Positions 1,835 to 37,409 of a stretch of DNA of 64,000 bases are shown piece by piece. Numbering within the stretch: the stretch's first letter is position 1; each line of letters begins with the position of its first letter. The notes below the pieces were generated by a model. The model saw nothing but the letters and a program-made list of their open reading frames with translations, searched no databases and was not told the origin of the DNA. A program made the translations under genes and the position numbers. The stretch comes from Candidatus Kerfeldbacteria bacterium (GTDB lineage: Bacteria; Patescibacteriota; Patescibacteriia; UBA9570; XYC2-FULL-38-9), in assembly GCA_043813585.1 (NCBI GenBank), contig JBDRKW010000006.1:149741-213740 (forward strand). The letters are read 5' to 3'.

Positions 1835-1850
1835 AAGTAGTGTACGTATT

Positions 1851-2354: not shown

Positions 2355-2443
2355 CGCGTTGTTTTCTTAACGTTTATCTTATTAATTAAAGTCAGAATAT
2401 ATTGTACCATATTTTAAGCAAAGGTGCAAAAAGCTTTTCAACA

Positions 2444-3646: not shown

Positions 3647-3657
3647 AAACGACGTTG

Positions 3658-4719: not shown

Positions 4720-4727
4720 AGTTGCGC

Positions 4728-9385: not shown

Positions 9386-9394
9386 TTAGGAATG

Positions 9395-10534: not shown

Positions 10535-10637
10535 ATGCAAAACATTAATAAAATCAAAGGGAAAAATCCCGTAGATGTAGTAAATTATAACATCTTTTAG
10601 ACGCTTGTGCAACGAGTTCTACACAGGCCTTAATGCG

Positions 10638-12278: not shown

Positions 12279-12342
12279 GGCTCTATCATACGAGAAAACG
12301 GCCATGCTGGAAAGGTTTTGCCTTTACCCGTATAATCGACCT

Positions 12343-13503
12343 ATGCCTGAAACGGAAAAAACAACCTATGCGTTTATCCTGGGTTCGCACCCGGATCTTT
12401 CGCTTGCAGAGCTGAACGCCGTGCTGCCGTTGCCGGACGGAGCTCCGCTCACGCGCTCCGGAACCGTTGCGTTCTATAAAACGGCAGATCCGCTGGACGC
12501 CGACGCCCTCATGGAAACGCTCGGCGGCTGCATCAAGATTGTCGAAATGGCAGGCGTGTTTGATGAAGAAAAGCTTCTCGACTGGCTGATGAACCAAGTA
12601 GATCGTTCGACCAAATTCAATTATGGATTTTCTCTTTACCCGGCCGACAGAGGGATCAAAACGAAGAAACACTGGAAGACGCTGCACAAACTCGGCCTCC
12701 AGCTGAAGAAGTCATTCAAGGAGCAGGAGATCTCGGTACGCTTTGTGGAATCGCGCGAGGTCATATTATCGTCCGTGATCGTCCGAAAAGAACGGCTGCT
12801 GAAGAACGGCGTTGATATTGTGTTGCTCAAAGACAACGATGGCATGCGGTTTGGCAAAACCCTGGCCACCCAGCCATTTGGCGAGTTCTCCCGGCGCGAC
12901 TACGGCCGTCCGGAACGCGACGCGCGCTCCGGCATGCTGCCGCCCAAAGTCGCGCGCATGATGGTGAATATCGCGCAGCCGAAAAAAGACTCGGTGGTGC
13001 TCGATCCGTTCTGCGGTTCCGGAACAATCCCGCAGGAAGCACTGCTGCTCGGGTATGCAAACGTCATCGGCAACGACATCAGCGAGAAAGCGGTTGAAGA
13101 CACGCGAAAGAACCTGGAGTGGATGAAACTTCCGGAAATACCGTTGCACGTCTCGCCGGCTGAAGAGCTGGTGATGAAAAGCGTGCTGGATCCGTATTCG
13201 GTGGACCGCATCGTGTTTGAGGGTTACCTCGGTCCTCCATCGCCAAAGGAAGAACATATTTTGAAAATCAAAAAAGAACTGGCGGCATTGTATACAAATG
13301 CATTCCCGGTACTGTTCGACCTACTCAAGGAAGATGGGCGCGTTGTTGCGGCGCTGCCGTTCTGGAGATTCAGGGAGGACCACCATCTGGATATTCCCGC
13401 GATTATTAAAAGAGCCGGCTTTGTTATGGATGCCGGCCCATGGTTCTACCGTCGGCCGCAGTCAACCGTCGGCCGCGAAATTGTCCGCTTAAAAAAAGCG
13501 TAG
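12343..13503 (+). CDS. Class I SAM-dependent methyltransferase, TRM11/RlmL-like (N2-G / N6-A type) with an N-terminal substrate-binding domain
   Basis: Motif I VLDPFCGSGTIPQEA and a GPPSP motif-IV-like sequence. The upstream ATG at 12157 overlaps the neighbouring gene and was rejected. Confidence 0.6.
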   Translation: MPETEKTTYAFILGSHPDLSLAELNAVLPLPDGAPLTRSGTVAFYKTADPLDADALMETLGGCIKIVEMAGVFDEEKLLDWLMNQVDRSTKFNYGFSLYPADRGIKTKKHWKTLHKLGLQLKKSFKEQEISVRFVESREVILSSVIVRKERLLKNGVDIVLLKDNDGMRFGKTLATQPFGEFSRRDYGRPERDARSGMLPPKVARMMVNIAQPKKDSVVLDPFCGSGTIPQEALLLGYANVIGNDISEKAVEDTRKNLEWMKLPEIPLHVSPAEELVMKSVLDPYSVDRIVFEGYLGPPSPKEEHILKIKKELAALYTNAFPVLFDLLKEDGRVVAALPFWRFREDHHLDIPAIIKRAGFVMDAGPWFYRRPQSTVGREIVRLKKA

Positions 13504-13506
13504 ATA

Positions 13507-14574
13507 CTAACTGAAATGGAACAGCATCACGTCGCCGTCCTCCACGACGTATTCTTTGCCTTCCATCCGCACTTTCCCTTTTTCACGCGCACCGGCCCAG
13601 CCGCCGCCTGTGACAAAATCATCATACGAAACGACCTCGGCGCGGATAAACCCTTCTTCAAAGTCAGTATGGATCTTGCCGGCTGCCTGCGGCGCCGTGC
13701 TTCCCTTCGTGACAGTCCACGCGCGCACCTCTTTTTCGCCGGCTGTTAAAAAAGTAATAAGGTTGAGCGTCTCGTACCCGCGCTTGATCAGCTGTTCCAG
13801 GCCAGTCTTGTCCATGCCCATCTCTTTCATTAACTCCTTTGCGTCGTCTTCCGTAAGCTGCGCCAGCTCCGATTCGATCTTGGCAGAGATGGCAACCGGG
13901 TCCTTTTTCTTGAGCTCTTCAGGAAGGGCATCAGCTATGGCGCCTTCATCAACGTTTGCGATGAACAAAAACGGCTTCATGGTCAGTAGTTGGTACTTTT
14001 CCACGATCTCCCGCTCGTCTTCTTCCAGGGCGACGGTGTTTGCAAACTCGCCTGCGTCGAGCACGGGTTTTATCTTGTTTAAAATTTCCAATTCTTCAAC
14101 CGCTTCCTTGTCCTGGCCACGCGCCTTCTTTTCCATGGTTGCATGCAGTTTTTCAACTAGTTGGAGATCCGCCATGATCAATTCAAGATGAATAGTTTCC
14201 ATGTCGTCTTTCGGGTCGGCCTTGCCGGCGACGTGCACGACGTCCGGATCATTAAACGCCCGAACAACTTCGGCAATGGCATCCACTTCGCGGATATGCT
14301 GGAGGAACTTATTGCCCAGGCCTTCGCCTTTATGGGCGCCTGCCACCAACCCTGCGATATCAACAAACTCAATCATAGTAGGCACGATCTTTTCTGTTTT
14401 TACTAGAGGAGCCAAAACGGCGAGCCGTTCGTCCGGTACGGGCACGCAACCGACGTTCGGGTCAATCGTGCAAAACGGAAAATTCTCCGCAGCCACCTGG
14501 TTGCGGGTGAGCGCCTGGAAGAGCGTAGATTTTCCGACGTTGGGCAGGCCAACAATTCCTATCTGTAATGACAT
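13507..14574 (-). CDS. ychF: Ribosome-binding ATPase YchF
   Basis: MSLQIGIVGLPNVGKSTLFQALT G1 motif with TGS and C-terminal YchF domains. There is no SD upstream. Confidence 0.9.
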   Translation of the reverse strand: MSLQIGIVGLPNVGKSTLFQALTRNQVAAENFPFCTIDPNVGCVPVPDERLAVLAPLVKTEKIVPTMIEFVDIAGLVAGAHKGEGLGNKFLQHIREVDAIAEVVRAFNDPDVVHVAGKADPKDDMETIHLELIMADLQLVEKLHATMEKKARGQDKEAVEELEILNKIKPVLDAGEFANTVALEEDEREIVEKYQLLTMKPFLFIANVDEGAIADALPEELKKKDPVAISAKIESELAQLTEDDAKELMKEMGMDKTGLEQLIKRGYETLNLITFLTAGEKEVRAWTVTKGSTAPQAAGKIHTDFEEGFIRAEVVSYDDFVTGGGWAGAREKGKVRMEGKEYVVEDGDVMLFHFS

Positions 14575-14821
14575 AAAAATCGGGTTATGAACCCGATCAG
14601 CATAGAGGAATATTCATTTTGTTGCAATACGTCTGGCTTTACCGCCCGTTTCCCATTTCTCTGAAGCGAATGCTCGTTTCGCATCAGAGAGACGGGGCCG
14701 GGCCACTGCAGATCGTGTAGATTGCAGGGCCCGGCTTGAACTTCGTTCGTCCGTCGGTGCGCCGTGGTAGCGTGGCGCCGTTGCCACCGGCTTGCAGACC
14801 GGCGTTAAGCTCGGTTGTGCG

Positions 14822-15073
14822 CTAGCCGTTGAGGCCGCGCACGAACTGATCGGTGTCGACCGTGTCGCCGTCGGAGACCATCATCGGGGCGTAGGCGCCC
14901 ATGACGGGGGTCTTGACGAACTGCATGCGGATGCTGTCGACCAGGTCTGCCAACGCGTCGCGGACGTGGTCCACGGCCTTCTCGACCAGCGGGGTACCCG
15001 CAGGTGCGAAGCGGCCGATGACGGCGATGGCGAGGATGGACAGGACGACGAAGTTCGGGTTGGAGAGGCTCAT
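14822..15073 (-). CDS. Small (83 aa) hypothetical protein with an N-terminal hydrophobic helix; GC-rich
   Basis: About 65% GC in a roughly 50% GC context. A strong SD (AAGGGGG) lies 6 nt upstream of the ATG. Confidence 0.45.
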   Translation of the reverse strand: MSLSNPNFVVLSILAIAVIGRFAPAGTPLVEKAVDHVRDALADLVDSIRMQFVKTPVMGAYAPMMVSDGDTVDTDQFVRGLNG

Positions 15074-15443
15074 AATGGCCCCCTTTCGTAATCAGTCGTG
15101 TGCGCAGTCTCCCGGAGGACAAGCTCCCGCGGGAAACATTGCAACTTGTGTAGAACGACTGCTCGGTAGCGGTAGGGATGCATTTTGCTTTCAGCAAAAA
15201 ACGCAGTTCCCTCCCTTCACAGAGCAGCTGTCCTCAAGTGCTTAATTATTTCTCTCTCACTCTTATATACTCTCTCCTGCTCTTATTGCACAAATCTGTA
15301 CAAAAGAACGAAACAGCATAGCGCACTTTTGCTGTTTTGTCAAGAGTAAAAGACGGGATATTCGCTAATTTTAGCGAAACGATATATATGTTGGTTACCC
15401 TAGCAAAATGAAAAACAGCGATGAATTCAGCTCATGAACACCA

Positions 15444-15472
15444 TTGACAAAAGCCTTTTTTCATGATATCCT
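15444..15472 (+). promoter_or_regulatory. Sigma70-type promoter (TTGACA-17-TGaTATCCT extended -10)
   Basis: TTGACA at 15444-15449, 17-nt spacer, TG-extended -10 at 15464-15472. It lies upstream of the small membrane-protein gene. Confidence 0.4.
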
Positions 15473-15536
15473 ACTTGGTCTTTTACTCGAGGAGAGAGTT
15501 TCGAGGGAGGACAGCACCTTTGGAAGGAGAAACGTC

Positions 15537-15842
15537 ATGAACACGGTTTCCAAGACCATCCGTATCTGCACCAGCTTCGCGCTAGTGATCCTCGGCTACA
15601 TCCTGCTTCACAACATTTACGCCCACATCGATGCGATCATCGGCTGCATCTCGGCGTACGACGTGGAGCCGAGCTACACGCACGAATGGATCACTCGCGC
15701 GCTGATCTGGCACGTCAAGGAGTACGTCTTCGTGAATGGAGTGACCTGCTACCTGTTGATCGGCACGCTGATCATCAGGATGAACGCACGACGACTCTCT
15801 ACTGAACTCTTCCGTCTTGGGGAGGAATATAGGGAGGCATAG
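15537..15842 (+). CDS. Small (101 aa) two-TM membrane protein, unknown function
   Basis: Strong SD GGAAGGAG 6 nt before the ATG. Two hydrophobic helices and an RMNARRLSTELFRLGEEYREA tail. Confidence 0.5.
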   Translation: MNTVSKTIRICTSFALVILGYILLHNIYAHIDAIIGCISAYDVEPSYTHEWITRALIWHVKEYVFVNGVTCYLLIGTLIIRMNARRLSTELFRLGEEYREA

Positions 15843-15935
15843 AGGTGCTAGGGGGACGAACCGCAAGCGCGATTCAGGGTGGAGACGACACGTCACCGCC
15901 CACCCCCCAGTTCCTGTGACTGCAACTCGATTGTA

Positions 15936-16500
15936 GCCAGAGGAATGAAGCTCCCCGGGCTCACGCCCGGGGTATCTTTATACCCATACAAACTTCGTTT
16001 GTCCTTTGTCCTCTTTACCTTGCTGCTCTATATATTTTTCGATAGTATTTCTGTTGACTCCGACGGTAGAGACAAAATAGCCATCTGACCATATTCCCAT
16101 CTTGTCGTTCTCGTACATATGGCTAAGGAAAGGAAACTGCGTTCTCATGGCCTTTGCACTATTGCTTTTAAGAGTACGTACGATATCAGAAACAGCGTAT
16201 TTTGGAGGAATGACTAGAAGGAGATGGATATGGTCTTCATCCGTATTCATTTCAATAAGTTCAATATCAGGTTGTGTGTTGAGTATATTTTTTATAGTGG
16301 CCATGAGATACGCTCCCATGCCTTGTTTGAGTATCTTTCTTCTATATTTGGTGACAAAGACAAGATGGTATTGTGTATAGTAAATACTGTGCGCTTGTTT
16401 GCGGTATGCGATTGGTTCACTCATACTGTGAACATACCACGCTGCGGTAAAGAGGCCAAAGGCACAGCAAGGAACCCCGGGCTCACGCCCGGGGTATTGA
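15936..16500 (-). mobile_element. IS200/IS605-family insertion sequence (tnpA only)
   Basis: The identical perfect palindrome CCCCGGGCtcacGCCCGGGG occurs at both ends (15953-15972 and 16475-16494), flanking a Y1/HuH transposase gene. Confidence 0.75.
15978..16424 (-). CDS. tnpA: IS200/IS605 family transposase TnpA (Y1 HuH)
   Basis: YHLVFVTKYRRKIL and HIHLLLVIPP (HuH) motifs in a roughly 148-aa protein. Real start MSEPIAY at 16424. Confidence 0.85.
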   Translation of the reverse strand: MSEPIAYRKQAHSIYYTQYHLVFVTKYRRKILKQGMGAYLMATIKNILNTQPDIELIEMNTDEDHIHLLLVIPPKYAVSDIVRTLKSNSAKAMRTQFPFLSHMYENDKMGIWSDGYFVSTVGVNRNTIEKYIEQQGKEDKGQTKFVWV

Positions 16501-16515
16501 CTCCGTACACAAAAA

Positions 16516-16545
16516 GAATCCCGCACTAAACGGGATTCTTTTTAT
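16516..16545. terminator. Hairpin and T-run (bidirectional terminator candidate)
   Basis: GAATCCCGcactaaaCGGGATTCttttt. Confidence 0.45.
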
Positions 16546-24519: not shown

Positions 24520-25854
24520 ATGAACCTGGACGCAATCTTCAAAGCGTATGACATCCGCGGAGTCGTACCCGATGACCTAAACGAAGATCTCGTCACCAAA
24601 CTTGGAAAAGCATTTGCAACGTTTGTCGAAGCTGACACTGTCATGGTTGGCCACGACATGCGAAACACGTCTCTGCCGCTTGCAGAGGCGTTTGCATCTG
24701 GGGTGATGAGCACCGGGAAAAATGTCACTTTTTTGGGGCTAATCCCGACTGACGCAAGTTACTATGCCGCCGGCAAGTATGAGTTGCCGTGTGTGATGTT
24801 TACCGCGTCGCACAACCCGGCGCAGTGGAACGGGCTGAAGCTCACCAACGCGGGCGCGGTTCCCATCGGCTTGGAATCCGGCCTGCAGGACATCCGTGAT
24901 ATTCTCGAAAAAGAATTATGGAAAGAAAGCAGCACGCCCGGCACACGAAGCGACAAAAACGTCATTGACGAATATATCGCGCATGCGCTCTCGCTCGTGG
25001 ACGTATCCAAGATCAAGCCGTTTAAAGTGGCAATTGACGCGGGCAACGGCATGGGCGGATATGTTGCGCCAAAGCTGTTTGAACACCTGCCATGCGAAGT
25101 CATCCCGCTCTATTTCGAGCTGGACGGCACCATGCCCAACCATGAACCAAACCCGATTAAATCGGAAAATGTCGCAGACCTGATCGAGGCGGTTAAAAAG
25201 GAAGGTGCAGACATCGGTCTGGCGTTTGACGGAGATGCAGACCGTGTCTTCTTCATTGATGAAAAAGGCAGCCGCGTAAGCGCATCGTTTGTCGGCGCGA
25301 TGGTCGCCAAAAACATGCTGAAAAAAAACCCCGGCGCGACCATTATTTATAACGCGGTGTCGAGCAAGATCGTGCCGGAAACAATTGAAAAAAACGGCGG
25401 CACGGCGGTGATAGAACGCGTTGGCCATTCGTTCATCAAAAAAACTATGGCCGAAACCGGTGCGGTATTTGCGACCGAGCACTCGGGCCACTACTACTTC
25501 AAGGACAACTACCGCGCGGACAGCGGGCTTATCACGTCACTCATTGTATTGGAGATGCTGTCCGAAACAGACAAGCCGTTTTCCGAACTATTGGCAGAAT
25601 TCCAAAAATATTTCGCCATTGAAGAAACGAATTCAGAGGTGGATGACAAGGACGCGGCCATTGCGCGGGTGAAGGAAAAATATGCTGACGCGAAAATAAC
25701 CGAGCTTGACGGTGTCACGTTCGAATACGACGACTATTGGTTCAACGTGCGGCCGTCAAATACCGAACCGGTGCTGCGGCTGAACCTGGAAGCGAACACG
25801 CCAGAATTGCGCGACGAAAAAGCGGCAGAGGTACTACAAATCATTAGAGGTTAA
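24520..25854 (+). CDS. Phosphomannomutase / phosphoglucomutase (α-D-phosphohexomutase family)
   Basis: Active-site TASHNPAQWNGLK, Mg-binding DGDADR and the sugar-binding region are all present. Confidence 0.85.
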   Translation: MNLDAIFKAYDIRGVVPDDLNEDLVTKLGKAFATFVEADTVMVGHDMRNTSLPLAEAFASGVMSTGKNVTFLGLIPTDASYYAAGKYELPCVMFTASHNPAQWNGLKLTNAGAVPIGLESGLQDIRDILEKELWKESSTPGTRSDKNVIDEYIAHALSLVDVSKIKPFKVAIDAGNGMGGYVAPKLFEHLPCEVIPLYFELDGTMPNHEPNPIKSENVADLIEAVKKEGADIGLAFDGDADRVFFIDEKGSRVSASFVGAMVAKNMLKKNPGATIIYNAVSSKIVPETIEKNGGTAVIERVGHSFIKKTMAETGAVFATEHSGHYYFKDNYRADSGLITSLIVLEMLSETDKPFSELLAEFQKYFAIEETNSEVDDKDAAIARVKEKYADAKITELDGVTFEYDDYWFNVRPSNTEPVLRLNLEANTPELRDEKAAEVLQIIRG

Positions 25855-28324: not shown

Positions 28325-28361
28325 ATGTATTGCTTATTTACCGATTCTATTTTACCAAATT

Positions 28362-28410
28362 CCGGTATCAAAGTAAAAAAAAGCCCAGCCGGATGTTCCT
28401 CCATTCCAGA
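28362..28410 (-). terminator. Imperfect hairpin plus T8 run after the GC-rich gene pair
   Basis: The minus strand reads CCCATCTGG..(loop)..CCGGCTGGG followed by TTTTTTTT. Confidence 0.4.
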
Positions 28411-28414
28411 TGGG

Positions 28415-29467
28415 TCAGTCGATGATGACGGGCGGTGTCTCGTCCGGGTCTCCGGTCCAGCGCTGCAGGTCTTCGTCAGAGAACGACGGCGCGCGTGCCG
28501 TCAAAAACCGCCAGCCGGAATCCCATGTGGTGGCTGCCCTGCCGACCGTAAGCATGCGCTTCTTCCCGTCCTGGGTAAGGTTCACTGCGTGCCTCCGGTT
28601 GCCGCCCAGCTTGGCGAAGATCGTGATCGGCCGGTCATGCGTCAGGTCATGGAGCGACAGGCCAAACGAGATCAGCTCTTCCAGGTCGGCCATGCGGAGC
28701 TTCCGGTCGGAAATCTCCGCCTGGATCTCGCCCGAGGTCGCAGGCCGGTCCAGCTGAACAATTACGAGCTCGCGCACGACGCGGCCATCGCCGTCGCCGT
28801 GGGACTCCAGGCGGCTCGTGTTGAGTTTGGGATCGACATAGACGAACTGCCCGCGTGCAATCAGCTCTCTGGGCGTCAGGTTGTAGTTGACAACCAGCGT
28901 GTAGTCATCATCATCCCAGGTCTCCTGGCTGTCCGTGTCGCGCTCCGTGAGCACGATCTCCGGCTGCGAAGGCGCGATGACTACATCATGGCGCACACGC
29001 TTCTTCGGGCGCCACCGCGGAACCTCTGGCGGCACGTCCGGTCCTGCCTCCACCTTCTGATCGAGCGACACCTCCATCTCCGTCTCGTGGAGTTGCCACT
29101 TATCGCGGTTGCGGATGATCATGCGTGCAAGCTTGCGCATGAGCCGCTCGTTATGGACAAACGCGAAATAATCCTCGTCTGTCCCGCCCACTCGGGCGAA
29201 CTCGTCCACGAACGCGTACCCCGCGCCGATAAACTCCTTCACGTGCAGCCCGACGGCCAAAGCGCCGCGGTTGAAGAAGGGGTCCGTGATCCGGCGATGG
29301 GACAGGATGACCTGGTTGATCACCAGGCCGAGCGCCTCGCTGCCGGTCCCGAGAATGCTCCGATGCAGTACCCGCACCGAGTGGCCGAGCTTCGCGTCGT
29401 CGATCTTCTCGATCGCGCGCAACACCTCTGTTGCGATGTAAAGGAACTCTTTCGGGTTGGATGACAC
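28415..29467 (-). CDS. Hypothetical protein (350 aa), paralogue A of a GC-rich two-gene module
   Basis: GTG start preceded by GGAGG. About 62% GC. Its N-terminal roughly 120 aa are paralogous to the upstream gene (GGTDEDYFAFVHNERLMRKLA vs GGTEEDILRMFFDYRLIERIA). Basic linker RWRPKKRVRHD. Confidence 0.5.
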   Translation of the reverse strand: MSSNPKEFLYIATEVLRAIEKIDDAKLGHSVRVLHRSILGTGSEALGLVINQVILSHRRITDPFFNRGALAVGLHVKEFIGAGYAFVDEFARVGGTDEDYFAFVHNERLMRKLARMIIRNRDKWQLHETEMEVSLDQKVEAGPDVPPEVPRWRPKKRVRHDVVIAPSQPEIVLTERDTDSQETWDDDDYTLVVNYNLTPRELIARGQFVYVDPKLNTSRLESHGDGDGRVVRELVIVQLDRPATSGEIQAEISDRKLRMADLEELISFGLSLHDLTHDRPITIFAKLGGNRRHAVNLTQDGKKRMLTVGRAATTWDSGWRFLTARAPSFSDEDLQRWTGDPDETPPVIID

Positions 29468-29501
29468 AACTCACCTCCGCTCATCATCCCGAGTTTCACC
29501 T

Positions 29502-29530
29502 ATCATATCGTCATCCGGAGGCAGGGTCAA
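29502..29530 (-). promoter_or_regulatory. Sigma70-like promoter (TTGACC-17-TATGAT) for paralogue A
   Basis: On the minus strand, TTGACC corresponds to plus 29525-29530 and TATGAT to plus 29502-29507. Confidence 0.4.
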
Positions 29531-29571
29531 CGTAAAAAAATCCGGCGAACGCAGCGATGCTGTGTTGCCGG

Positions 29572-30528
29572 TCAATTCACATCCTCTGCGCACTCCGCCG
29601 GAGAGCGCGCCAGAACCTGCACGCCGTTCTCGATCTCACGGGCGATGTTCCAGTACTTGATGGTCCACTCGCGCCCGTCGTCATCCGGAACGAAGAACGG
29701 CACGTACGCGTCGCCGTGCGACCCTTCCCACCGCTCGCAGGGAACCAGCACCTCGCCGGTTGCGTGCGTGCGGTAGCGCCGCATGAAGAACAACGCGTCT
29801 CCCAGCGTCGGACGCGCAAGCCCCTGACGCCGCAGGGCGGCGAGCATCGCCTCGAAGTTCAGGCTGCGGTCGAACTCCACCAGCGCCATCTGGTACGGCG
29901 CATCACCGCGGCAGGTGTTGCCGACGTTCAGCGGGAACTGCTGCTCCGACACCATGGAGCCGGGTTCCATCCGCACGCCCGCCTCGTGCAGCGCGGCAGC
30001 GAACGTCTTCTGCTCCGAAGGCCGGAACAGGTCCGGAAACACGGTGGAACGCAACCGCGTGGCCGGAGCAAGCACCTTCAGCCGCGGCTTGCGGGGCCTG
30101 GACTTCTGCCTGCCGCATGCTCCGCCTTCGGCAAACGGACTTTGCGGCCCGGCATTACCGTGCTCCATCTCGTCGGCGAAGTTCACCACCGTGGTGGCGA
30201 TCCGCTCGATCAGCCGGTAGTCGAAGAACATGCGCAGAATGTCTTCCTCCGTGCCGCCGGCAGAACGAATCTCACTCAGCAGCACTTTGGACGCCGTCAT
30301 CATGGTACGGACGGCGAAACCAATCTCGGCATCGCTCATCCTGTCCAATGTTCTGAACAGATCCCCGTACATCGCATACCGGCGCGGCCGTACGACCGAC
30401 ATCATCATCTTCTCCGCGATCAGCGCCCTAATGGCTACCCCGATGTCCTCGTCCCTGAAGGACTTGAACTGGTCGATCACGGAGCTCAACAGCGAAAGAA
30501 TCCCGCGATACACTGCAGTCATGTTCAA
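29572..30528 (-). CDS. Hypothetical protein (318 aa), paralogue B of a GC-rich two-gene module
   Basis: SD GGGAGGA 7 nt upstream of the ATG. About 62% GC. It shares the N-terminal domain and a basic linker (RQKSRPRKPRLK) with paralogue A. Confidence 0.5.
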   Translation of the reverse strand: MNMTAVYRGILSLLSSVIDQFKSFRDEDIGVAIRALIAEKMMMSVVRPRRYAMYGDLFRTLDRMSDAEIGFAVRTMMTASKVLLSEIRSAGGTEEDILRMFFDYRLIERIATTVVNFADEMEHGNAGPQSPFAEGGACGRQKSRPRKPRLKVLAPATRLRSTVFPDLFRPSEQKTFAAALHEAGVRMEPGSMVSEQQFPLNVGNTCRGDAPYQMALVEFDRSLNFEAMLAALRRQGLARPTLGDALFFMRRYRTHATGEVLVPCERWEGSHGDAYVPFFVPDDDGREWTIKYWNIAREIENGVQVLARSPAECAEDVN

Positions 30529-30635
30529 ATCCTCCCGGAATTCGAGTTTTCAAGTGCGCATACCATAATAAAACAACGGCCTCCTGTCAACGCTGCATGT
30601 TCGATTTTGCCTGCGGCTATGGTACACTTCAAAAC

Positions 30636-31424
30636 ATGAACAAGGAGCTTCAAACCGCCATGAAGGCTGCTGATGCAGCGTCGCGCATCGCGTTGAAGTA
30701 TTGGCGCAAAAAGAACCATGTACGCACGAAAACCAACTGGCGCGATCCGGTCACGATCGCTGATGTAAAAGCGGATAGAGCAATTCGCAAAATGATCAAG
30801 AACAAATTCCCTGACCACGGCATCGTTTCAGAAGAGCTGGATGATGTAGAAGCAACAAAACAATCAGAATACGTATGGGTCATTGACCCCATTGATGGCA
30901 CGATGAATTACGCCATGGGCCTGCCGACCTTCAGCATTGCAATTGGCTTGTTGAAGAACAGCAAGCCCGTACTCGGTGTGATCGACCACCCTGCGCTTAG
31001 CGAACGCTACTGGGCAGAAGCAGGAAATAATACGCTGATGAAACGCGGCAATAAAAAACCGGTTCGCTGCACTGTTTCAAAAACAACATCACTGAAAGAA
31101 AGCAAATTCTCGTTCGGCTTCAGCTACACTGATGCCTCCCGCAAACGCTTCCTTAAATCATTTCCAGGCCTTGTAATGAAGACCGCAGCCTCGCGTATCC
31201 ACTACTGCGCCGCCTACGACTGCACAAATGTCGCCCGCGGCGGGCTCGACTTCTACATCAGCATCAACCTGCAACTCTGGGACTTTGTTGCTGCCTGGCC
31301 GATCGTCGAAGGATCCGGCGGTGAAATCGTAAACCTCGAAGGTAAACCGATTACCATCGAAGACCGCAGCATTGTCGCGACAAATAAAAAAGTCACACAC
31401 TCCGTCTTGAAAATGCTGAAGTAA
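30636..31424 (+). CDS. Inositol monophosphatase family protein (SuhB/IMPase-like)
   Basis: WVIDPIDGTMNY and GLPTFSIAIGL motifs. Confidence 0.8.
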   Translation: MNKELQTAMKAADAASRIALKYWRKKNHVRTKTNWRDPVTIADVKADRAIRKMIKNKFPDHGIVSEELDDVEATKQSEYVWVIDPIDGTMNYAMGLPTFSIAIGLLKNSKPVLGVIDHPALSERYWAEAGNNTLMKRGNKKPVRCTVSKTTSLKESKFSFGFSYTDASRKRFLKSFPGLVMKTAASRIHYCAAYDCTNVARGGLDFYISINLQLWDFVAAWPIVEGSGGEIVNLEGKPITIEDRSIVATNKKVTHSVLKMLK

Positions 31425-31504
31425 CGGCGGCATACGAAAAAGATGACAGCCGGCTTGCATTCTGGTACCCTAAATCAGGATAATTTATTCAAATTCCATT
31501 TCAT

Positions 31505-33055
31505 ATGACCGTAAAACGACCGCTGGTATTAGCCATTCTCGACGGCTGGGGCATTGGGGAGGATGACGCGCACAACGCCATCTATCTTGCTGACACTCCG
31601 AATATCGACAAACTGCTTGCAACCTACCCCAACGGGCCGATCGGCGCTGCCGGAGAACACGTAGGGCTGGAGCCGGGCCACCAGGGTTCAAGCGAAATGG
31701 GCCACCTGATTATCGGGGCCGGACGCAATGTCGTTCTGCCGCAGATGCAGGTGCAGCAGGCGCTTGATACGGGGTCAATTTTCAAAAATGAAGCCTACCT
31801 TAAGGCGATTCGTCACGCGAAAGAAAGAGGTTCGCGGCTGCATCTGTTTGGTTTGTTATCCAACGCGGGCGTGCATTCGTACGATACGCTCTGCCATGCG
31901 CTTCTTGAAATGGCCGCCAAAGAAGGGCTCACCAAAGAACAGGTCTATATCCATATTTTTTCCGACGGACGGGATTCTTCGCCCACTTCCCTGCCCACAT
32001 ACGTAAACCGGCTCGAAGAAAAAATGAAAGAAACCGGCGTAGGCATTATCGCCTCCGTGCAGGGCCGCTGGTGGGTGATGGACCGCGATCACAACTGGGA
32101 CCGGATCAATGTCGCATACGACCTGCTCACCCAGGGAAAGGCAAAGCGCGAAGCCAAAAACATCTACGCCGCCATCGAACTGGCGCGGCGCGAAAACGAA
32201 ACCGACGAACAGTTAAAGCCGACAATCATCGACAAAAACGGCATATTCAAAGACAACGATGCGGTGATCAACTTCAACTACCGCGTTGACCGCGAAATCG
32301 AAATCACGCAGGCGCTGGTGGAGCCGGACTTTGATGAATTCCACCGCGAAGTCCACCCGGGCATCTTCTACATTGCCACCATGCCCTACTACGACGGCAT
32401 GCCGAGCCTGACCGCGTTCGATCGCGAAGAGCTAAAAATGCGGAATATCCTCGGCGAGGTGCTGGCGCGCGAAGGCCTCATGCAGTACCGCGTAACCGAA
32501 ACGGAAAAATGGGCCTACCTCACGAAAATCTTCAACGCCATGCAGGAAGGCCCGTTTGAAGGCGAAGAACGCCACCTGATCCCTTCCGACAAGGTCAACA
32601 CCTTTGATGAAAAACCGGAGATGCAGGCCGTGCCTATTGCGGAGAACATTGTAGTGCAGCTGCAGGAGAAAAAATACGACGTTATCTTCACGAATATCTG
32701 CAACGCGGACATGGTCGGCCATACAGGCAACCAGGAAGCCGCCATTCGCGCCTGCCAGGCCATTGACCGCGCCATCGGGCTCATCCGAGAGGAGTTAAAA
32801 AAACAAAACGGCATCCTGCTCATCACCGCCGACCACGGCGACGCGGAAGTCATGTGGGATCCGGAACACGACATGCCGCATACCCAGCATACGGACAGCT
32901 TCGTGCCGTTCATCTATATTGATGACGAGAATAAAAACGTGCGCATCCGCGAAACCGGCGCTCTCAAGGACATTGCGCCGACCATTCTGGACCTGCTTAA
33001 CATAGATATCCCCGGCGAGATGGAAGGCAAATCATTACTCGTACCGAAAAAATAG
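31505..33055 (+). CDS. gpmI: 2,3-bisphosphoglycerate-independent phosphoglycerate mutase
   Basis: Full-length iPGM (LAILDGWG, phosphoserine region, metal-binding C-terminal ADHGD/HT motifs). Confidence 0.9.
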   Translation: MTVKRPLVLAILDGWGIGEDDAHNAIYLADTPNIDKLLATYPNGPIGAAGEHVGLEPGHQGSSEMGHLIIGAGRNVVLPQMQVQQALDTGSIFKNEAYLKAIRHAKERGSRLHLFGLLSNAGVHSYDTLCHALLEMAAKEGLTKEQVYIHIFSDGRDSSPTSLPTYVNRLEEKMKETGVGIIASVQGRWWVMDRDHNWDRINVAYDLLTQGKAKREAKNIYAAIELARRENETDEQLKPTIIDKNGIFKDNDAVINFNYRVDREIEITQALVEPDFDEFHREVHPGIFYIATMPYYDGMPSLTAFDREELKMRNILGEVLAREGLMQYRVTETEKWAYLTKIFNAMQEGPFEGEERHLIPSDKVNTFDEKPEMQAVPIAENIVVQLQEKKYDVIFTNICNADMVGHTGNQEAAIRACQAIDRAIGLIREELKKQNGILLITADHGDAEVMWDPEHDMPHTQHTDSFVPFIYIDDENKNVRIRETGALKDIAPTILDLLNIDIPGEMEGKSLLVPKK

Positions 33056-33062
33056 CCGAGCC

Positions 33063-33722
33063 ATGAACACTAAGGCAGTCATCTTCGACCTCGACGGCGT
33101 CGTCATCCACTCGGAACAGATCTGGTACGATGCGATGATCGAATTTTACCGGGAACACGGGAAGGAATATTCTTCAGGCATCCGCGAAATGCTCATGGGA
33201 ACGAGCCAGCAGTTTTCCGGCCAGTTCATCAAGGACGACCTCGGCCTTGGCAGCGATTGGCCGCCCGAAAAAGTGATCACCACCATCATCGACCGCGTGA
33301 AAGTCGGGTACCAGAACAACCTGCGGCTGGTGGACGGCTATATGGATCTGATGAAGCAGATTATGGAAACCGATGTACGGCGCGGGCTGGCGTCCGGCGC
33401 CCGTCCCGACCTGATAGAACACGCAATCACGGAATTCAAGCTGTACGACCATTTTGAATCCACCATGTCCGGCGACATGGTGAAACATCCAAAACCGGCA
33501 CCGGATGTCTATTTGGAAGTGGCCAAGCGTTTAAATGTTGAACCGGAGCGGTGCGTCGGCATCGAGGACTCGCCCAAAGGCGTGCAGTCGGTGAAAGCTG
33601 CCGGCATGCGCTGCGTGGCCATTCCGGATAAATTCCTGAAAGACCATGACGCATTTGCGGGCGCAGACGTGATACGCGAAGACCTCACCCTGGTGACCCT
33701 TCACGATTTAGGCATACAATAA
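33063..33722 (+). CDS. HAD-superfamily hydrolase (β-phosphoglucomutase-like subfamily IA)
   Basis: Motif I FDLDGVV and motif IV GIEDSPKGVQS. Its stop overlaps the next gene's start (TAATG). Confidence 0.75.
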   Translation: MNTKAVIFDLDGVVIHSEQIWYDAMIEFYREHGKEYSSGIREMLMGTSQQFSGQFIKDDLGLGSDWPPEKVITTIIDRVKVGYQNNLRLVDGYMDLMKQIMETDVRRGLASGARPDLIEHAITEFKLYDHFESTMSGDMVKHPKPAPDVYLEVAKRLNVEPERCVGIEDSPKGVQSVKAAGMRCVAIPDKFLKDHDAFAGADVIREDLTLVTLHDLGIQ

Positions 33723-35071
33723 TGACAATACGCAGCGAACAACCATTTATCTTCAAAGAGTATAACTTCGACCACGGCACGAATACGGCCACGTTTACCT
33801 ATTCATACGGCAACGAACTGACGTTCACAGAAACTCTGGAGTTCCCTGCCGAAACGGTCGCACTGGATAATAACCCCGAGGTGTTCAAACGGCTGCTGTT
33901 CTGCCTCCACCTGATCCTCGGCATCAGCTACTGGAAAGCGTACTGCCCGAAAAAGATCGAAGTGGAATCCGGCATGCTTACGCGCGAACAGGCCGATTTC
34001 TGGAATACCGTGTACACCAAAGGCCTGGGCGAATTTTTCTACAAGAACGAAATCGATTTCCGCGGCCTGGTACAGTTTCCAGCGACCGCAACCGTGGCGC
34101 TGGATCCGCATGCGGCCAGCGTCGATGACACGTCCCTGGTTCCGCTCGGCGGCGGAAAAGACTCGCTGCTCACCATCACGCTGCTGAAGCAACTGGAAAA
34201 GCCGTTTTCCACTTTTGCCCTGGGCAGCCATGAAATCATTGAACAGCAGGCCGAACGCATCGGTGAAGAGCATTTCATCGTCAAACGCACAATTGACCCG
34301 AAACTGCTTGCGCTGAATAAGCAAGACGCCTACAACGGCCACGTGCCAGTATCCGCCATCTACGCGTTTACCGCACTGGCAACGGCAGCGCTCACCGGAA
34401 ACCGGTATGTCATCGTTTCCAACGAACACAGTTCGAACGAAGGCAACGTGCAGTACCTCGGCGAAACCATCAACCACCAGTGGAGCAAAAGCTACGAGTT
34501 CGAACAGCTGCTGCGCGGGTATGTGACAACGTACATCACGCCGGACATTGAATACTTCAGCCTACTGCGGCCGCTCCATGAAATACAGATCGCGAAACTG
34601 TTCAGTGAATACGCGGCAGAATGGCTCCCCCGCTTTACCAGCTGCAACAGGAATTTCCGGCTGGAAGAGCGCGCCGAGTCGCTCTGGTGCTGCCAATGCC
34701 CCAAGTGCGCGTTCGTGTTCCTGATGCTCGCGCCGTTCATGCCCAAGCAGGACCTGATCAAAGCGTTCGGCAACAACCCGCTGGATGACGAATCGCTCAT
34801 CCCGGTCTACGAAGAGCTGCTGGGCGTTAAAGACCACAAGCCATTTGACTGCGTCGGTACGCCTGAAGAGGTCCGTGTGGCGTTCAGCATGCTTGGCGAT
34901 GTCGAGAATTTCGACAATGACGCGGTTATGACGCATGTCCGGACGCTGTCGAGCGTCAGCCTGGATGACGTGGAAGACGTGCGGAAGGCCGTTTTCTCCG
35001 TCTCTGACGAACATGCCCTCCCTGACGAATTCTTAACCACATTCGATGCCATCGAACTATCTCAACAATAA
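33722..35071 (+). CDS. PP-loop (adenine-nucleotide α-hydrolase) ATPase with a CxxC..CxxC element; candidate MurL-type UDP-MurNAc-L-Ala-L-Glu epimerase
   Basis: PP-loop LGGGKDS near residue 140 and a CQCPKCAFVF zinc-ribbon-like motif. It is translationally coupled to, and overlaps, the downstream stand-alone murD. Confidence 0.45.
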   Translation: MTIRSEQPFIFKEYNFDHGTNTATFTYSYGNELTFTETLEFPAETVALDNNPEVFKRLLFCLHLILGISYWKAYCPKKIEVESGMLTREQADFWNTVYTKGLGEFFYKNEIDFRGLVQFPATATVALDPHAASVDDTSLVPLGGGKDSLLTITLLKQLEKPFSTFALGSHEIIEQQAERIGEEHFIVKRTIDPKLLALNKQDAYNGHVPVSAIYAFTALATAALTGNRYVIVSNEHSSNEGNVQYLGETINHQWSKSYEFEQLLRGYVTTYITPDIEYFSLLRPLHEIQIAKLFSEYAAEWLPRFTSCNRNFRLEERAESLWCCQCPKCAFVFLMLAPFMPKQDLIKAFGNNPLDDESLIPVYEELLGVKDHKPFDCVGTPEEVRVAFSMLGDVENFDNDAVMTHVRTLSSVSLDDVEDVRKAVFSVSDEHALPDEFLTTFDAIELSQQ

Positions 35072-36371
35072 AAACATTCTCATCCTTGGGGGGGGCCGCG
35101 AAGGCATTTCTGCCGCGTACTACCTCAACCAGCTCTATCCGTCTGCGACGTTAAGCGTTGCCGACAGGCAAGTGCTGGACATCGCCCTGCCAAACGGCAC
35201 GCAGCCGCTCTACGGCCCGAACTATCCCGCCTCACTCGAGCAGTGGGACCTTGTGATTGTATCACCCGGCATCCCGCCGAATGACCCGCTCCTGGCAACC
35301 GCCCGCGCGGTTACGACCTCCACCAACATTTTCATGGACGACTGCGCCGGCATGGTGATCGGCGTAACCGGCTCCAAAGGCAAAAGCACGACTGCATCGA
35401 TTATCCATAACATCCTCACCACTGCGGGGAAACACGCGTACCTGGTGGGCAATATCGGCTACCCGGCGCTTGCGGAACTGTCGCGACATAATGACAAAGA
35501 AGATATTTTCGTATTTGAAATGTCGAGCTATCAGTTGAGCCGCATCAACAAAGGGCCGGAGATCGCGGTTATCACCAACCTGTTTCCCGAACATCTCGAC
35601 TATCACGGCGACGTGCAGCAGTACTACGCGGACAAAATGAACATCACCATGAAGCAGAAGCCGGAACAGGTGGTAATCGCCAACCAGGCGTACGGCGAAC
35701 TGCTTCAGCGCGTCCAGCAGTCTCAGGCAACCAAGATATTTTACCCGGACATGCAGGGGCCGCACACGCAGGATTCCACCGTCATGCTCGGCAACCTGGA
35801 GCTGGTGCACCGCAGCGAAATCCAGCTAAAGGGAGACCACAACGTGGAAAACATCATGGCCGCCGTGGCCGTCACTTCCTATATGGACATTGCCATGAAT
35901 GCGATCAAGCAGGGCATCGTTACGTTCACTCCACTGCCGCACCGGCTGGCGCTCGTTGGCACCGTCAACGGCGTAACGTTTTATAACGATTCCCTCGCCA
36001 CCACGCCGGAAGCGACCATCGCCGCGATCAACGCATTGGAAAATGTCGGCACAATCATCCTCGGCGGACTTAACCGCGGGTATGATTTTAGTCAGCTGGC
36101 GTTATTAATCACGCAGAAACAGATCCCGAATATCGCCTTTTTCCCGGACTCGGGCGCGCAGATTGAAGAACAGCTGCTCAAACTGAAATACGAACCCAAT
36201 CGGATCCACACGCAGTCCATGAAAGAAGCGGTTGCGTTCGCGTTCAAGAATTCACCGAAAGGATCGATCTGCCTGCTCTCCTGCGCCAGCCCCAGCTACT
36301 CCGTGTTCCGCAACTACGAAGACCGCGGCAACCAGTTTGAACAGGCGGTTATCGAACTGCAGACACAATAG
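35046..36371 (+). CDS. murD: UDP-N-acetylmuramoyl-L-alanine--glutamate ligase (MurD family; possibly an L-Glu-specific MurD2)
   Basis: N-terminal Rossmann domain ILILGGGREG and P-loop GVTGSKGKSTTAS (Mur ligase middle domain), with a Mur ligase C-terminal domain. Confidence 0.8.
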   Translation: MPSNYLNNKNILILGGGREGISAAYYLNQLYPSATLSVADRQVLDIALPNGTQPLYGPNYPASLEQWDLVIVSPGIPPNDPLLATARAVTTSTNIFMDDCAGMVIGVTGSKGKSTTASIIHNILTTAGKHAYLVGNIGYPALAELSRHNDKEDIFVFEMSSYQLSRINKGPEIAVITNLFPEHLDYHGDVQQYYADKMNITMKQKPEQVVIANQAYGELLQRVQQSQATKIFYPDMQGPHTQDSTVMLGNLELVHRSEIQLKGDHNVENIMAAVAVTSYMDIAMNAIKQGIVTFTPLPHRLALVGTVNGVTFYNDSLATTPEATIAAINALENVGTIILGGLNRGYDFSQLALLITQKQIPNIAFFPDSGAQIEEQLLKLKYEPNRIHTQSMKEAVAFAFKNSPKGSICLLSCASPSYSVFRNYEDRGNQFEQAVIELQTQ

Positions 36372-36416
36372 TCTTTCCGGAATAAAAAAATCGGCTCGAA
36401 GACGACTTTTTTTTAT

Positions 36417-37409
36417 TCAGTATCCTAGGCCGATAGTGTCGTACACGTCGGCTAATGTTTGTGATGCCACTTCCTGCGCGCGCTCGCGGCCGTCATCCAA
36501 GATGCGCTCCAATTCGCCCTCGTCCTTGAGCAACGAATTCACTTCCTGCTGCAGCGGTTCGAGCCACGCGATCACCGCGTCCGCCATGCCGGCCTTGAAA
36601 TCCGCATAACCCTTGCCGTTGTATTCCTTTTCCAGGCCAGCAACCGATGTTCCGGTGACAGCGCTGTAAATGGTGAGCAAATTCGTCAGCGCCGGCTTGT
36701 TCTTGCCCGCCTTTACCTCGCTACCCGTGTCCGTGACCGCCTTCATGATCTTCTTGCGAACGACATCCATGTCGTCAAACAATGAAATATAATTATTAGC
36801 GCTCGCCGCGCTCTTCGACATCTTGTTTGCCGGATCATCCAGCCCCATGATGCGCGCACCCGCTTTCGGCATAAACGGCTCCGGCACGGTAAACACCTCG
36901 CGATCATAATGGTTGTTGAACCGCTCGGCAATATTGCGCGTCAACTCCACGTGCTGTTTCTGGTCCTCACCCACCGGCACGGCATCTGCCTTGTACAACA
37001 GGATGTCCGCCGCCATCAGCACCGGGTAGGTATACAGCCCGACGCCGACGCCTTCCTTTTTCTGCTTGCCGACCTTGTCCTTAAACTGCGTCATGCGTTC
37101 CAGTTCGCCCATCTGCGTAAAGGTGGAAAGCACCCATGCCAGCTCCGCATGCGCCGGCACGGTTGACTGCACAAAAATGGCCGACTGCTTCGGATCAACG
37201 CCGCACGCCAGGTAGACGGCCGCAGTCTTTCGGATATTCGCGCGCAGCTCTTCCGGGTCCTGCCGCGCTGTAATCGCGTGCAGGTCCACGATGCAGAAGT
37301 AGCTATCATACTTTTTTTGCATCTCCACCCACTGGCGGATTGCCCCCAGGTAATTTCCTATGTGGAGTTCGCCCGAAGGCTGAATCCCCGATAAAATGCG
37401 CTGTTTCAT
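36417..37409 (-). CDS. trpS: Tryptophan--tRNA ligase
   Basis: HIGN (HIGH) and KMSKS motifs. TACAAT lies 6 nt upstream of the ATG, consistent with a leaderless mRNA. Confidence 0.9.
   Translation of the reverse strand: MKQRILSGIQPSGELHIGNYLGAIRQWVEMQKKYDSYFCIVDLHAITARQDPEELRANIRKTAAVYLACGVDPKQSAIFVQSTVPAHAELAWVLSTFTQMGELERMTQFKDKVGKQKKEGVGVGLYTYPVLMAADILLYKADAVPVGEDQKQHVELTRNIAERFNNHYDREVFTVPEPFMPKAGARIMGLDDPANKMSKSAASANNYISLFDDMDVVRKKIMKAVTDTGSEVKAGKNKPALTNLLTIYSAVTGTSVAGLEKEYNGKGYADFKAGMADAVIAWLEPLQQEVNSLLKDEGELERILDDGRERAQEVASQTLADVYDTIGLGY

Follow-up and report, generated by a model that had tools for sequence, protein, structure and literature searches.

The gene pair at positions 33722-36371 of the window, the 64,000-nucleotide stretch analysed here, very probably encodes a MurD2/MurL bypass of glutamate racemase in Candidatus Kerfeldbacteria, as judged from its sequence. 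The window derives from a MAG of this lineage (CPR/Patescibacteria). In the proposed pathway, the MurD2-type ligase would use ATP to join L-Glu, not D-Glu, onto UDP-MurNAc-L-Ala, as its signature residues and phylogeny suggest. MurL, as its PP-loop fold and its orthology to the enzyme characterised from X. oryzae both suggest, would then bind ATP at its GGGKDS motif, adenylate the terminal L-Glu at the alpha-carboxylate and, in an ATP-driven epimerisation, turn this residue into D-Glu. The route itself is known from Xanthomonas, and probably occurs here in a lineage unlisted by the MurL literature examined.

Gene layout and surroundings

Region 31505-36371 carries gpmI, a gene for a HAD phosphatase, the gene for a 449-aa protein and murD, all on the forward strand (Table 1). 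The four are genuine genes and not chance open reading frames, since they are strongly conserved, with family E-values of 1e-25 to 1e-163. The gpmI stop codon is followed after 7 nt by the HAD ATG, while the HAD TAA and the murL ATG overlap by one base in TAATG. Across the 26-nt overlap, murL and murD are read in different frames. The first-pass annotation had described this gene order, the TAATG coupling and an overlap of about 26 nt, and all four reading frames, the TAATG junction and the overlap are as it described them. Given the overlap, murL and murD are probably translationally coupled; overlaps of at least 4 nt between these two genes are common among CPR loci.

Upstream lies an IMPase-like gene, and downstream are convergent genes for trpS and RNase J. 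No dcw genes or further Mur ligase were found among the window reading frames tested. A minus-strand cluster at 1-14.6 kb, suspected of being a dcw cluster, turned out to be a type IV pilus cluster. In this CPR genome, a promoter and terminator scan of 30300-36700 gave fewer sites than shuffled sequence. The Candidatus Kerfeldbacteria host is ultrasmall and uncultured.

Table 1. Features of the gpmI-HAD-murL-murD locus, in window positions
Feature	Position	Strand	Basis
gpmI, cofactor-independent phosphoglycerate mutase, 516 aa	31505-33055	+	TIGR01307, 544 bits (cutoff 331)
HAD-IA sugar-phosphatase-like protein, 219 aa	33063-33722	+	HAD_2, E 1e-25; HxpB best NCBIfam match, below cutoff
murL, 449-aa protein	33722-35071	+	NF041275 match
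GGGKDS PP-loop of MurL (residues 143-148), predicted ATP alpha/beta-phosphate site	34148-34165	+	Invariant in 25 homologs
Cys cluster of MurL, C308...C323-x2-C326-x2-C329 (SCN ... WCxxCxKC), putative Zn site	34643-34708	+	Alignment
murL/murD overlap, 26 nt	35046-35071	+	Junction sequence inspected
murD, 441 aa	35046-36371	+	TIGR01087, 311 bits; Mur_ligase N/M/C domains
MurD E182 codon (E. coli D182; X. oryzae MurD2 E197)	35589-35591	+	Alignment, exact E. coli numbering
MurD L317 codon (E. coli K319), lysine absent	35994-35996	+	Alignment
MurD R344 codon (E. coli K348; MurD2 R358)	36075-36077	+	R in 75/75 MurL-linked MurDs
MurD P416-S417-Y418 (E. coli A414-S415-L416; MurD2 P433-x-F435)	36291-36299	+	Alignment

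The 449-aa protein is MurL-like

The sole NCBIfam match of the 449-aa protein is NF041275, which covers its full length (residues 6-442 onto model positions 7-444 of 447) with an E-value of 9e-120 and 400 bits. BLASTP against the annotated X. sacchari MurL gave 37% identity over 431 aa with three gaps (E 9e-93). These matches bear out the earlier proposal that the protein is MurL-like. The score lies below the equivalog cutoff of 700, which leaves family-level homology unaffected; the model takes its name from Xanthomonadales, to which it is tuned, and gives 836 bits to the X. sacchari protein, 355-426 to CPR fusion proteins and 323 to an actinobacterial homolog. X. sacchari served as the MurL reference; the experimentally confirmed actinobacterial orthologs are those of Micromonospora and Salinispora. 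A local Pfam scan found no match; the precomputed families PF26298 and PF26299 are listed for the protein, neither being in the local copy scanned. A search of PDB sequences with MurL alone as the query returned noise only.

The predicted structure has the fold of a QueC-like PP-loop ATP pyrophosphatase, with QueC, Asn-synthetase-like proteins and NAD and GMP synthetases as nearest folds. The PP-loop, of the SGGxDS type, occupies the turn between the first strand and helix of an alpha/beta domain that is Rossmann-like, and the motif and fold together are consistent with AMP formation. In a profile search, TtuA was matched over the PP-loop only (E 0.002), its SGGKDS aligning with GGGKDS. Set against TilS, ThiI and QueC, the relatives that the first-pass annotation had weighed, the protein goes with MurL alone at the sequence level, though its predicted fold is QueC-like.

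Both motifs picked out earlier, LGGGKDS (residues 142-148) and CQCPKC (within WCCQCPKC, residues 322-329), are present, but only part of the second is constrained. In an alignment of 25 sequences, no variation is seen at G143-S148, C308, C323 or C326, and at least 90% retain C329. The middle cysteine, C324 of 'CQC', is unconserved, so that the conserved pattern is C308...C323-x2-C326-x2-C329. Xanthomonas MurL keeps the GGGKDS motif and the four-cysteine cluster as well. By analogy with QueC, the cluster probably holds a structural metal (Zn).

The MurD protein carries MurD2 signatures

Five MurD positions, E182, L317, R344, P416 and Y418, are all MurD2-like and unlike those of 11 canonical controls. 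The numbering was checked on E. coli K115, N138, H183, K198, K319, T321, K348, S415 and F422, all of which map correctly; K319 is the lysine of 'DSKAT' and K348 lies inside 'GGDGKSADF'. At the K319 position, lysine is found in 11/11 canonical MurDs and in none of 75 MurL-linked MurDs, all of which have Ile, Leu or Ala; X. sacchari MurD2 has Ile. Proline occupies the A414 position in 73 of the 75 (0/11 canonical). An aromatic residue at the L416 position also occurs in canonical MurDs and is thus undiagnostic alone. Position 182 is Asp instead of Glu in 15/73 CPR MurDs, and Glu in the window protein. An E197D/R358K double mutant of X. oryzae MurD2 acquires D-Glu specificity, and E. coli MurD K319T accepts L-Glu (PMC8788868). 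The K319T result, taken with the 11/11 and 0/75 counts, suggests that loss of the K319-equivalent lysine may be a marker of the MurD2 family.

A neighbour-joining tree places the window MurD and X. sacchari MurD2 apart from the 11 canonical MurDs with a bootstrap of 100/100, and the split persists without the five signature columns (96/100); it is a distance tree with one Xanthomonas reference and 11 canonical sequences. The Xanthomonas murL and murD2 references were taken from a 508-kb X. sacchari record labelled 'plasmid'. As the first-pass annotation had supposed, the protein thus falls on the MurD2 side, in both residues and clade. Overall identity is near-equal, 26-32% to canonical MurDs and 31% to X. 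sacchari MurD2, and the assignment therefore rests on the five residues, the tree topology and the gene linkage.

Could murD instead be an ordinary D-Glu ligase, supplied with D-Glu by a racemase or aminotransferase elsewhere or by a host, beside a PP-loop enzyme of RNA or cofactor modification such as TilS, QueC or ThiI? The top match of the window MurD is the TIGR01087 'D-glutamate ligase' model, its identities do not separate the two classes, QueC is the nearest fold to that of MurL, and the genome was inspected over 64 kb. This makes such a reading conceivable, yet it is very improbable. The TIGR01087 label does not discriminate, since the genuine X. sacchari MurD2 scores equally well (298 bits). 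Five specificity positions and a fully supported split speak for MurD2, the NF041275 match is strong, and no tRNA or queuosine family matched the PP-loop protein at E 0.01 or better in Pfam or NCBIfam. The fusions of MurL with MurD in both orders, described below, are also hard to square with an unrelated function. No Asp_Glu_race or Aminotran_4 domain (murI, dat) was found among the tested reading frames of the window, whose 64 kb belong to a contig at least 219 kb long.

Distribution and gene context

Besides the Kerfeldbacteria genome, at least 588 species-level genomes carry the murL/murD pair. Locus counts refer to the best 80 of these at least 588 related genomes, almost all of them CPR. 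In 78 of the 80, i.e. wherever the contig permits, murD lies beside murL, and in 26, about a third of the best 80, the two are fused into a single polypeptide; the fusions occur in both domain orders. At least 16 of the best 80 have the pair among dcw genes, six have it in the mraY-murD-ftsW slot, and recurrent murL neighbours are ftsW, murG, mraY, ftsA, ftsZ and murB. The murD gene was earlier noted to stand outside a dcw cluster. This is true here, but it does not mark a MurD2, as the gene holds the dcw murD position in other CPR.

The almost constant adjacency, the frequent fusion and the occasional occupation of the dcw murD slot argue that the pair is a housekeeping route in CPR and not an accessory one. 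We lean, by a small degree, towards MurL/MurD2 being the default D-Glu route in most CPR (Patescibacteria), often as a bifunctional polypeptide and in some lineages in the dcw murD slot. If so, this would explain why glutamate racemase is, to our knowledge, scarce in CPR genomes, and the route would be among the most phylogenetically widespread ways to D-Glu; the versions in Xanthomonadales and actinobacteria might in that case have been acquired laterally or be relics. A 2024 paper by Penalver reportedly gives, in its title, glutamate racemase (MurI) activity for Ca. Saccharimonas aalborgensis. Since racemase activity is reported for one CPR bacterium, the MurI and MurL/MurD2 routes both occur within CPR.

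The loci also bear on whether the PP-loop enzyme performs other adenylation-dependent chemistry on the stem-peptide glutamate, for instance amidation of the alpha-carboxylate to iso-glutamine in a non-canonical stem. Its nearest folds are carboxylate-adenylating, amidating enzymes, its identity to the characterised-family MurL is no more than 37%, and CPR wall chemistry is essentially uncharacterised. Even so, we regard this as a slim prospect, slimmer than that of an ordinary D-Glu ligase. Every conserved motif is common to Xanthomonas MurL, in a full-length alignment, and in none of the best 80 of at least 588 loci is murL linked to a glutaminase or ammonia-donor partner. An L-Glu-type pocket in MurD, moreover, is sensible only with a later stereo-inversion, because downstream Mur steps expect D-Glu.

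The proposed MurL/MurD2 route leaves gpmI and the HAD gene aside, although the first-pass annotation had seen in them a link between glycolysis and cell-wall genes. Tight spacing at the three junctions would suit a four-gene unit coupling lower glycolysis or sugar-phosphate turnover to cell-wall precursors, and the order IMPase-gpmI-HAD-murL-murD is repeated in a sister Kerfeldbacteria genome. It occurs nowhere else among the best 80 of at least 588 loci, where HAD is linked to murL in two and gpmI in three, with gpmI on the opposite strand in two of the linked cases. The recurrent neighbours elsewhere are instead the dcw genes listed above, and the HAD protein, of a generic HAD-IA type, scores beneath every specific NCBIfam cutoff. 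The link is thus unconserved, and a four-gene functional unit is the least likely of the alternatives. With the full arrangement confined to the closest relatives, the linkage is probably incidental and the two genes outside the pathway; they would be co-transcribed neighbours in a compact genome.

Significance

A literature search found no paper tying MurL/MurD2 or 'glutamate epimerase' to CPR, and the D-Glu step is absent from two CPR metabolism papers. If the assignment holds, it offers a testable answer to how reduced-genome CPR obtain D-Glu without a racemase, and the TIGR01087 'D-glutamate ligase' labels are stereochemically wrong for much bacterial diversity. We know of no solved structure or established mechanism for MurL; the natural fusions would provide single-polypeptide systems for structural work and may reveal substrate channelling between ligase and epimerase. 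A 2021 review by the discoverers confines MurD2/MurL to relatively few genera and proposes it as a target for narrow-spectrum antibiotics. The present distribution weakens the narrow-spectrum premise, at least for environmental and oral CPR bacteria.

Comparison with known systems

The published distribution of MurL/MurD2 comprises Xanthomonadales, a few Alphaproteobacteria and Micromonosporaceae, with weak matches in cyanobacteria, a fungus and an amoeba; CPR are absent, and neither MurL-MurD fusion nor dcw placement is mentioned in these reviews (PMC8788868, PMC5808125). Complementation requires both murL and the gene for the MurD-like ligase. As in Xanthomonas, murL precedes murD with a stop/start overlap (20 nt in X. 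sacchari, 26 nt here), the pair lies outside the dcw cluster, MurL is collinear over its full length with all motifs in common, and MurD has the E/R/P/aromatic residues and misses the K319-equivalent lysine. The window proteins differ in having Tyr for Phe at E. coli position 416 and Leu for Ile at 319 and in a MurL score below the Xanthomonadales-tuned cutoff, while their CPR relatives are frequently fused and sometimes lie within the dcw cluster.

Two domains of MurL set it off from QueC-type PP-loop enzymes, an additional beta/helical one of about 130 aa at the N-terminus and a helical one of about 100 aa at the C-terminus, and its outcome would be epimerisation, not amidation, thiolation or nitrile formation. 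No Pfam or NCBIfam match links it to QueC, Cap9, LarE, TilS, TtuA or NAD/GMP synthetases, the PP-loop profile hit at E 0.002 apart. The window MurD shares with canonical MurD the three-domain Mur ligase architecture and the conserved catalytic residues K115, N138, H183, K198, T321 and S415; its best PDB matches are 3lk7 (E 5e-60) and E. coli MurD (E 6e-43). It departs from canonical MurD in its separate, supported group and at the five specificity positions, which are D/K/K/A/L in the canonical enzyme. Like the proposed route, MurI and D-amino-acid aminotransferase supply D-Glu at position 2 of the stem peptide; they are not related to the MurL/MurD2 pair and work on free glutamate, reversibly and without ATP.

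The murL-murD locus in its genomic setting

The four open reading frames of the locus occupy exactly the positions given in the first-pass annotation, all on the plus strand (see the table of coordinates). Read directly from the sequence, the gpmI stop codon is followed by a 7-nt spacer and the HAD-family gene, which meets the gene for the 449-aa protein in a TAATG junction with a one-base overlap; the 449-aa gene in turn overlaps murD by 26 nt. The locus is flanked upstream by an IMPase/HisN-like gene and downstream by trpS, an RNase J gene and a tRNA-Leu gene, which are convergent with it. Neither dcw (division/cell-wall) genes nor a further Mur ligase were found among the tested open reading frames of the 64-kb window, in agreement with the earlier description of murD as lying outside a dcw cluster. 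An Asp/Glu racemase and a class-IV aminotransferase were also not found among these frames. As evidence on the genome, which extends beyond these 64 kb, all these negatives are weak.

The remaining gene content fits a CPR/Patescibacteria genome: CPR epibionts typically have a type IV pilus gene cluster such as the one here, and FolD, SHMT, UvrA/C/D, an oligopeptide-binding protein and numerous proteins without a family are also encoded. For the PGM/PMM-family mutase, GlmM (phosphoglucosamine mutase), which acts upstream in UDP-MurNAc synthesis, is a possible identity. The IS200-like transposase gene adjoins folD, an ECF sigma factor gene and glyA in a stretch of lower GC (0.47-0.48). GC is highest at 28325-30639 (0.61 versus about 0.53), where two adjoining minus-strand frames of 350 and 318 aa, without Pfam match, are mirrored by plus-strand frames of 379 and 360 aa, so that length alone leaves the coding strand non-obvious.

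Coordinates of features in the window and in related loci
Feature	Sequence	Position	Strand	Match or content
Type IV pilus cluster	window	2444-12305	-	PilC, PilT, PilB, three no-family ORFs, PilM, 555-aa no-family ORF
IS200-like Y1 transposase	window	15978-16526	-	PF01797, E 4e-32
Four-domain PGM/PMM-family mutase	window	24520-25854	+	family match
gpmI	window	31505-33055	+	TIGR01307, 544 bits, over cutoff
HAD-family gene	window	33063-33722	+	generic HAD-IA phosphatase, family scans
murL (449-aa ORF)	window	33722-35071	+	NF041275
murD	window	35046-36371	+	three-domain; TIGR01087, 311 bits
MurL-MurD fusion	L008	1836-4448
MurL-MurD fusion	L040	8001-10451
MurL-MurD fusion	L080	7980-10502
dcw cluster, complete Roizmanbacteria chromosome	CP066689.1 (L010)	1849-15946		murB...mraY-murL-murD-ftsW-murG...ftsA-ftsZ
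Plasmid MurL homolog, Pseudonocardia alni pPaSha1	NZ_CP052772 (L083)	4959-6359

The 449-aa protein as a MurL homolog

The proposal that the 449-aa protein is MurL is supported by profile searches. The protein is 100% identical to a database entry from a Candidatus Kerfeldbacteria MAG (hypothetical protein ABIG66_02400, encoded on a 219-kb contig). Its sole NCBIfam match, end to end, is NF041275, UDP-N-acetyl-alpha-D-muramoyl-L-alanyl-L-glutamate epimerase (E 9e-120, 400 bits). This score is below the equivalog cutoff of 700 bits; control scores of 836 for the annotated Xanthomonas sacchari MurL, 355-426 for CPR homologs and 323 for an actinobacterial homolog show that the cutoff is lineage-tuned. 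In a pairwise alignment, the protein is 37% identical to X. sacchari MurL over 431 residues with three gaps, and the two have the motifs GGGKDS, NGH(V/I)P, SNEHS, NHQWSK, SLLRP, SCNRNF, WCxxCPKC and KPF(D/E)CVG in common. On these sequence data we class it as a homolog of MurL. The family comprises 7,676 clusters at 90% identity and 1,266 at 50% identity (E 1e-30 or better).

MurL has been described as lacking known conserved domains, and as needing one ATP and releasing AMP; in the proposed chemistry, the alpha-carboxylate of Glu is adenylated, followed by epimerisation and hydrolysis (PMC8788868, PMC5808125). A sequence search with MurL detects no solved structure. An AlphaFold2 model calculated with 25 homologs has high confidence (pLDDT 91, pTM 0.92), and an independent profile search aligned 'vplGGGKDSivta' of MurL to the PP-loop 'vavSGGKDSavta' of TtuA (E 0.002). 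Together, these indicate that the PP-loop was called correctly in the first-pass annotation and provide a structural rationale for the formation of AMP. As for the CQCPKC zinc motif noted at the same time, conservation in MurL falls on C308, C323, C326 and C329 rather than on the literal 'CQC'. QueC has a Cys4 zinc site; by analogy, the four MurL cysteines probably hold a putative structural metal.

A lone MurL homolog, 30-33% identical and scoring 323 bits on NF041275, is also encoded on mobilizable actinobacterial plasmids (pPaSha1, NZ_CP010991 and NZ_CP011869). Next to it, the region examined on pPaSha1 encodes a WD40 protein and an HTH protein and has no annotated MurD. Many PLSDB 'plasmid' records are whole chromosomes of 2-5 Mb with murD.

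The window MurD as a probable MurD2-type ligase

Residues that discriminate the two ligase types have been reported: Asp182, Lys348, Ala414 and Leu416 of E. coli MurD correspond to Glu197, Arg358, Pro433 and Phe435 of X. oryzae MurD2, the E197D/R358K double mutant of MurD2 becomes a D-Glu ligase, and K319T lets E. coli MurD accept L-Glu (PMC8788868). We aligned the window MurD with E. coli MurD, X. sacchari MurD2 (the gene with a 20-nt overlap on murL) and 73 full-length MurDs from MurL loci, with 11 canonical MurDs from 5 phyla as controls; residue numbering was verified against nine literature residues. Loss of Lys319 and gain of Pro414 jointly split MurL-linked from canonical MurDs perfectly in this sample.

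Discriminating MurD residues in the window, reference and control sequences
E. coli	Window	X. sacchari MurD2	73 CPR MurL-linked	11 canonical
D182	E182	E	E 58, D 15	D or A
K319	L317	I	I 68, L 3, A 2	K 11/11
K348	R344	R	R 73	K or R
A414	P416	P	P 71, A 2	A or S
L416	Y418	F	Y 67, F 3, H 3	L, F, Y or W

A neighbour-joining tree separates the MurL-linked MurDs, including X. sacchari MurD2, from the canonical ones with a bootstrap of 100/100, and with 96/100 when the five signature columns are left out. The window murD product, for which a place among MurD2 rather than canonical sequences had been anticipated, groups with X. sacchari MurD2 (100/100) and is predicted to be of the MurD2 type.

TIGR01087, named 'D-glutamate ligase', matches genuine X. 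sacchari MurD2 (L082:6304-7740) at 298 bits, so this label carries no stereochemical information. The window MurD (311 bits) and Xanthomonas MurD2 are named alike, and wherever MurL occurs such naming systematically misstates the stereochemistry of the substrate. The X. sacchari R1 replicon with this gene (NZ_CP010410.1, 'plasmid unnamed', 508 kb) carries murL/murD2, ssb, a lysC-lysA fusion and a gene for a polyprenyl synthetase; these housekeeping genes point to a probable chromosomal fragment or chromid.

Gene order and fusions among relatives

A single scan with the MurL alignment across species-representative genomes placed MurL in at least 588 of them; the best 80 loci were examined. Almost all of these 80 are from CPR lineages, namely Kerfeld-, Peri-/Peregrini-, Falkow-, Roizman-, Gracili-, Levy-, Uhr-, Moran-, Taylor-, Woese- and Staskawicz-bacteria, Saccharibacteria and Microgenomates; some have a label that was evidently assigned automatically, for example 'uncultured Gammaproteobacteria'. 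murD accompanies murL in 78 of the 80, the other two contigs stopping at or just past murL, and in about 74 of those 78 it lies directly downstream on the same strand. In the Gracilibacteria loci L014 and L036, murD is 1.3-3.3 kb downstream of murL, not adjacent. Gracilibacteria use genetic code 25, and the table 11 frames called there may be broken for that reason.

About a third of the best 80 loci (25 full-length and one truncated) have a single in-frame MurL-MurD frame of 790-896 aa, in which the MurL C-terminus leads straight into the MurD Rossmann motif; three are tabulated, with 23 more loci alike. They come from several classes, among Saccharibacteria and the Falkow-, Moran-, Uhr-, Peri- and Staskawicz-bacteria, and NCBIfam confirmed both domains in one polypeptide (proteins P0122, P0124 and P0126). 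The opposite order, with MurD N-terminal and MurL C-terminal, is found in P0230 (878 aa) and P0239 (835 aa). Fusion in both orders points to independent events and tight functional coupling.

At least 16 of the best 80 loci have murL-murD among dcw genes, as in the Roizmanbacteria chromosome and in L003, L013, L078 and L080; ftsW follows directly in 11 and mraY is directly upstream in six. No second MurD was found at any locus within the fetched flanks. The MurL-linked ligase fills the canonical murD slot there, which argues for a housekeeping enzyme.

The tight spacing of gpmI, HAD, murL and murD suggests co-transcription in the Kerfeldbacteria lineage. The link between glycolysis and cell wall that had been read into it is not supported as a conserved functional one: near murL, gpmI occurs in three of the best 80 loci (twice on the opposite strand) and the HAD gene in two, and the order IMPase-gpmI-HAD-murL-murD is common only to the window and a sister Kerfeldbacteria genome (L001).

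Comparison with known MurD2/MurL systems

MurD2/MurL was first found in X. oryzae, with confirmation in Micromonospora and Salinispora; its distribution, called limited, covers Xanthomonadales, three alphaproteobacterial genera and Micromonosporaceae, with weak matches in cyanobacteria, a fungus and an amoeba (PMC8788868, PMC5808125). Full-text searches found no literature connecting MurL/MurD2 to CPR. In some databases the family is already recognised (JGI names, precomputed Pfam families), and so the knowledge is not absent but latent there. Penalver et al. (2024) reportedly found glutamate racemase activity in Ca. Saccharimonas aalborgensis, and the abstract of that study is said to describe D-Glu and D-Ala racemases as missing from most CPR genomes. 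Going by this study, both D-Glu routes would exist in CPR, and MurL/MurD2 could fill a recognised gap.

In CPR bacteria, the 'alternative' pathway seems common and often fused, and is possibly the default route. The window pair very probably functions as MurD2/MurL: known here from sequence, it belongs with the X. oryzae system by every testable criterion. It differs from that system in its CPR host lineage, outside the distribution given in the reviews, and its CPR relatives differ in the frequent fusion of the two enzymes and in their dcw placement.
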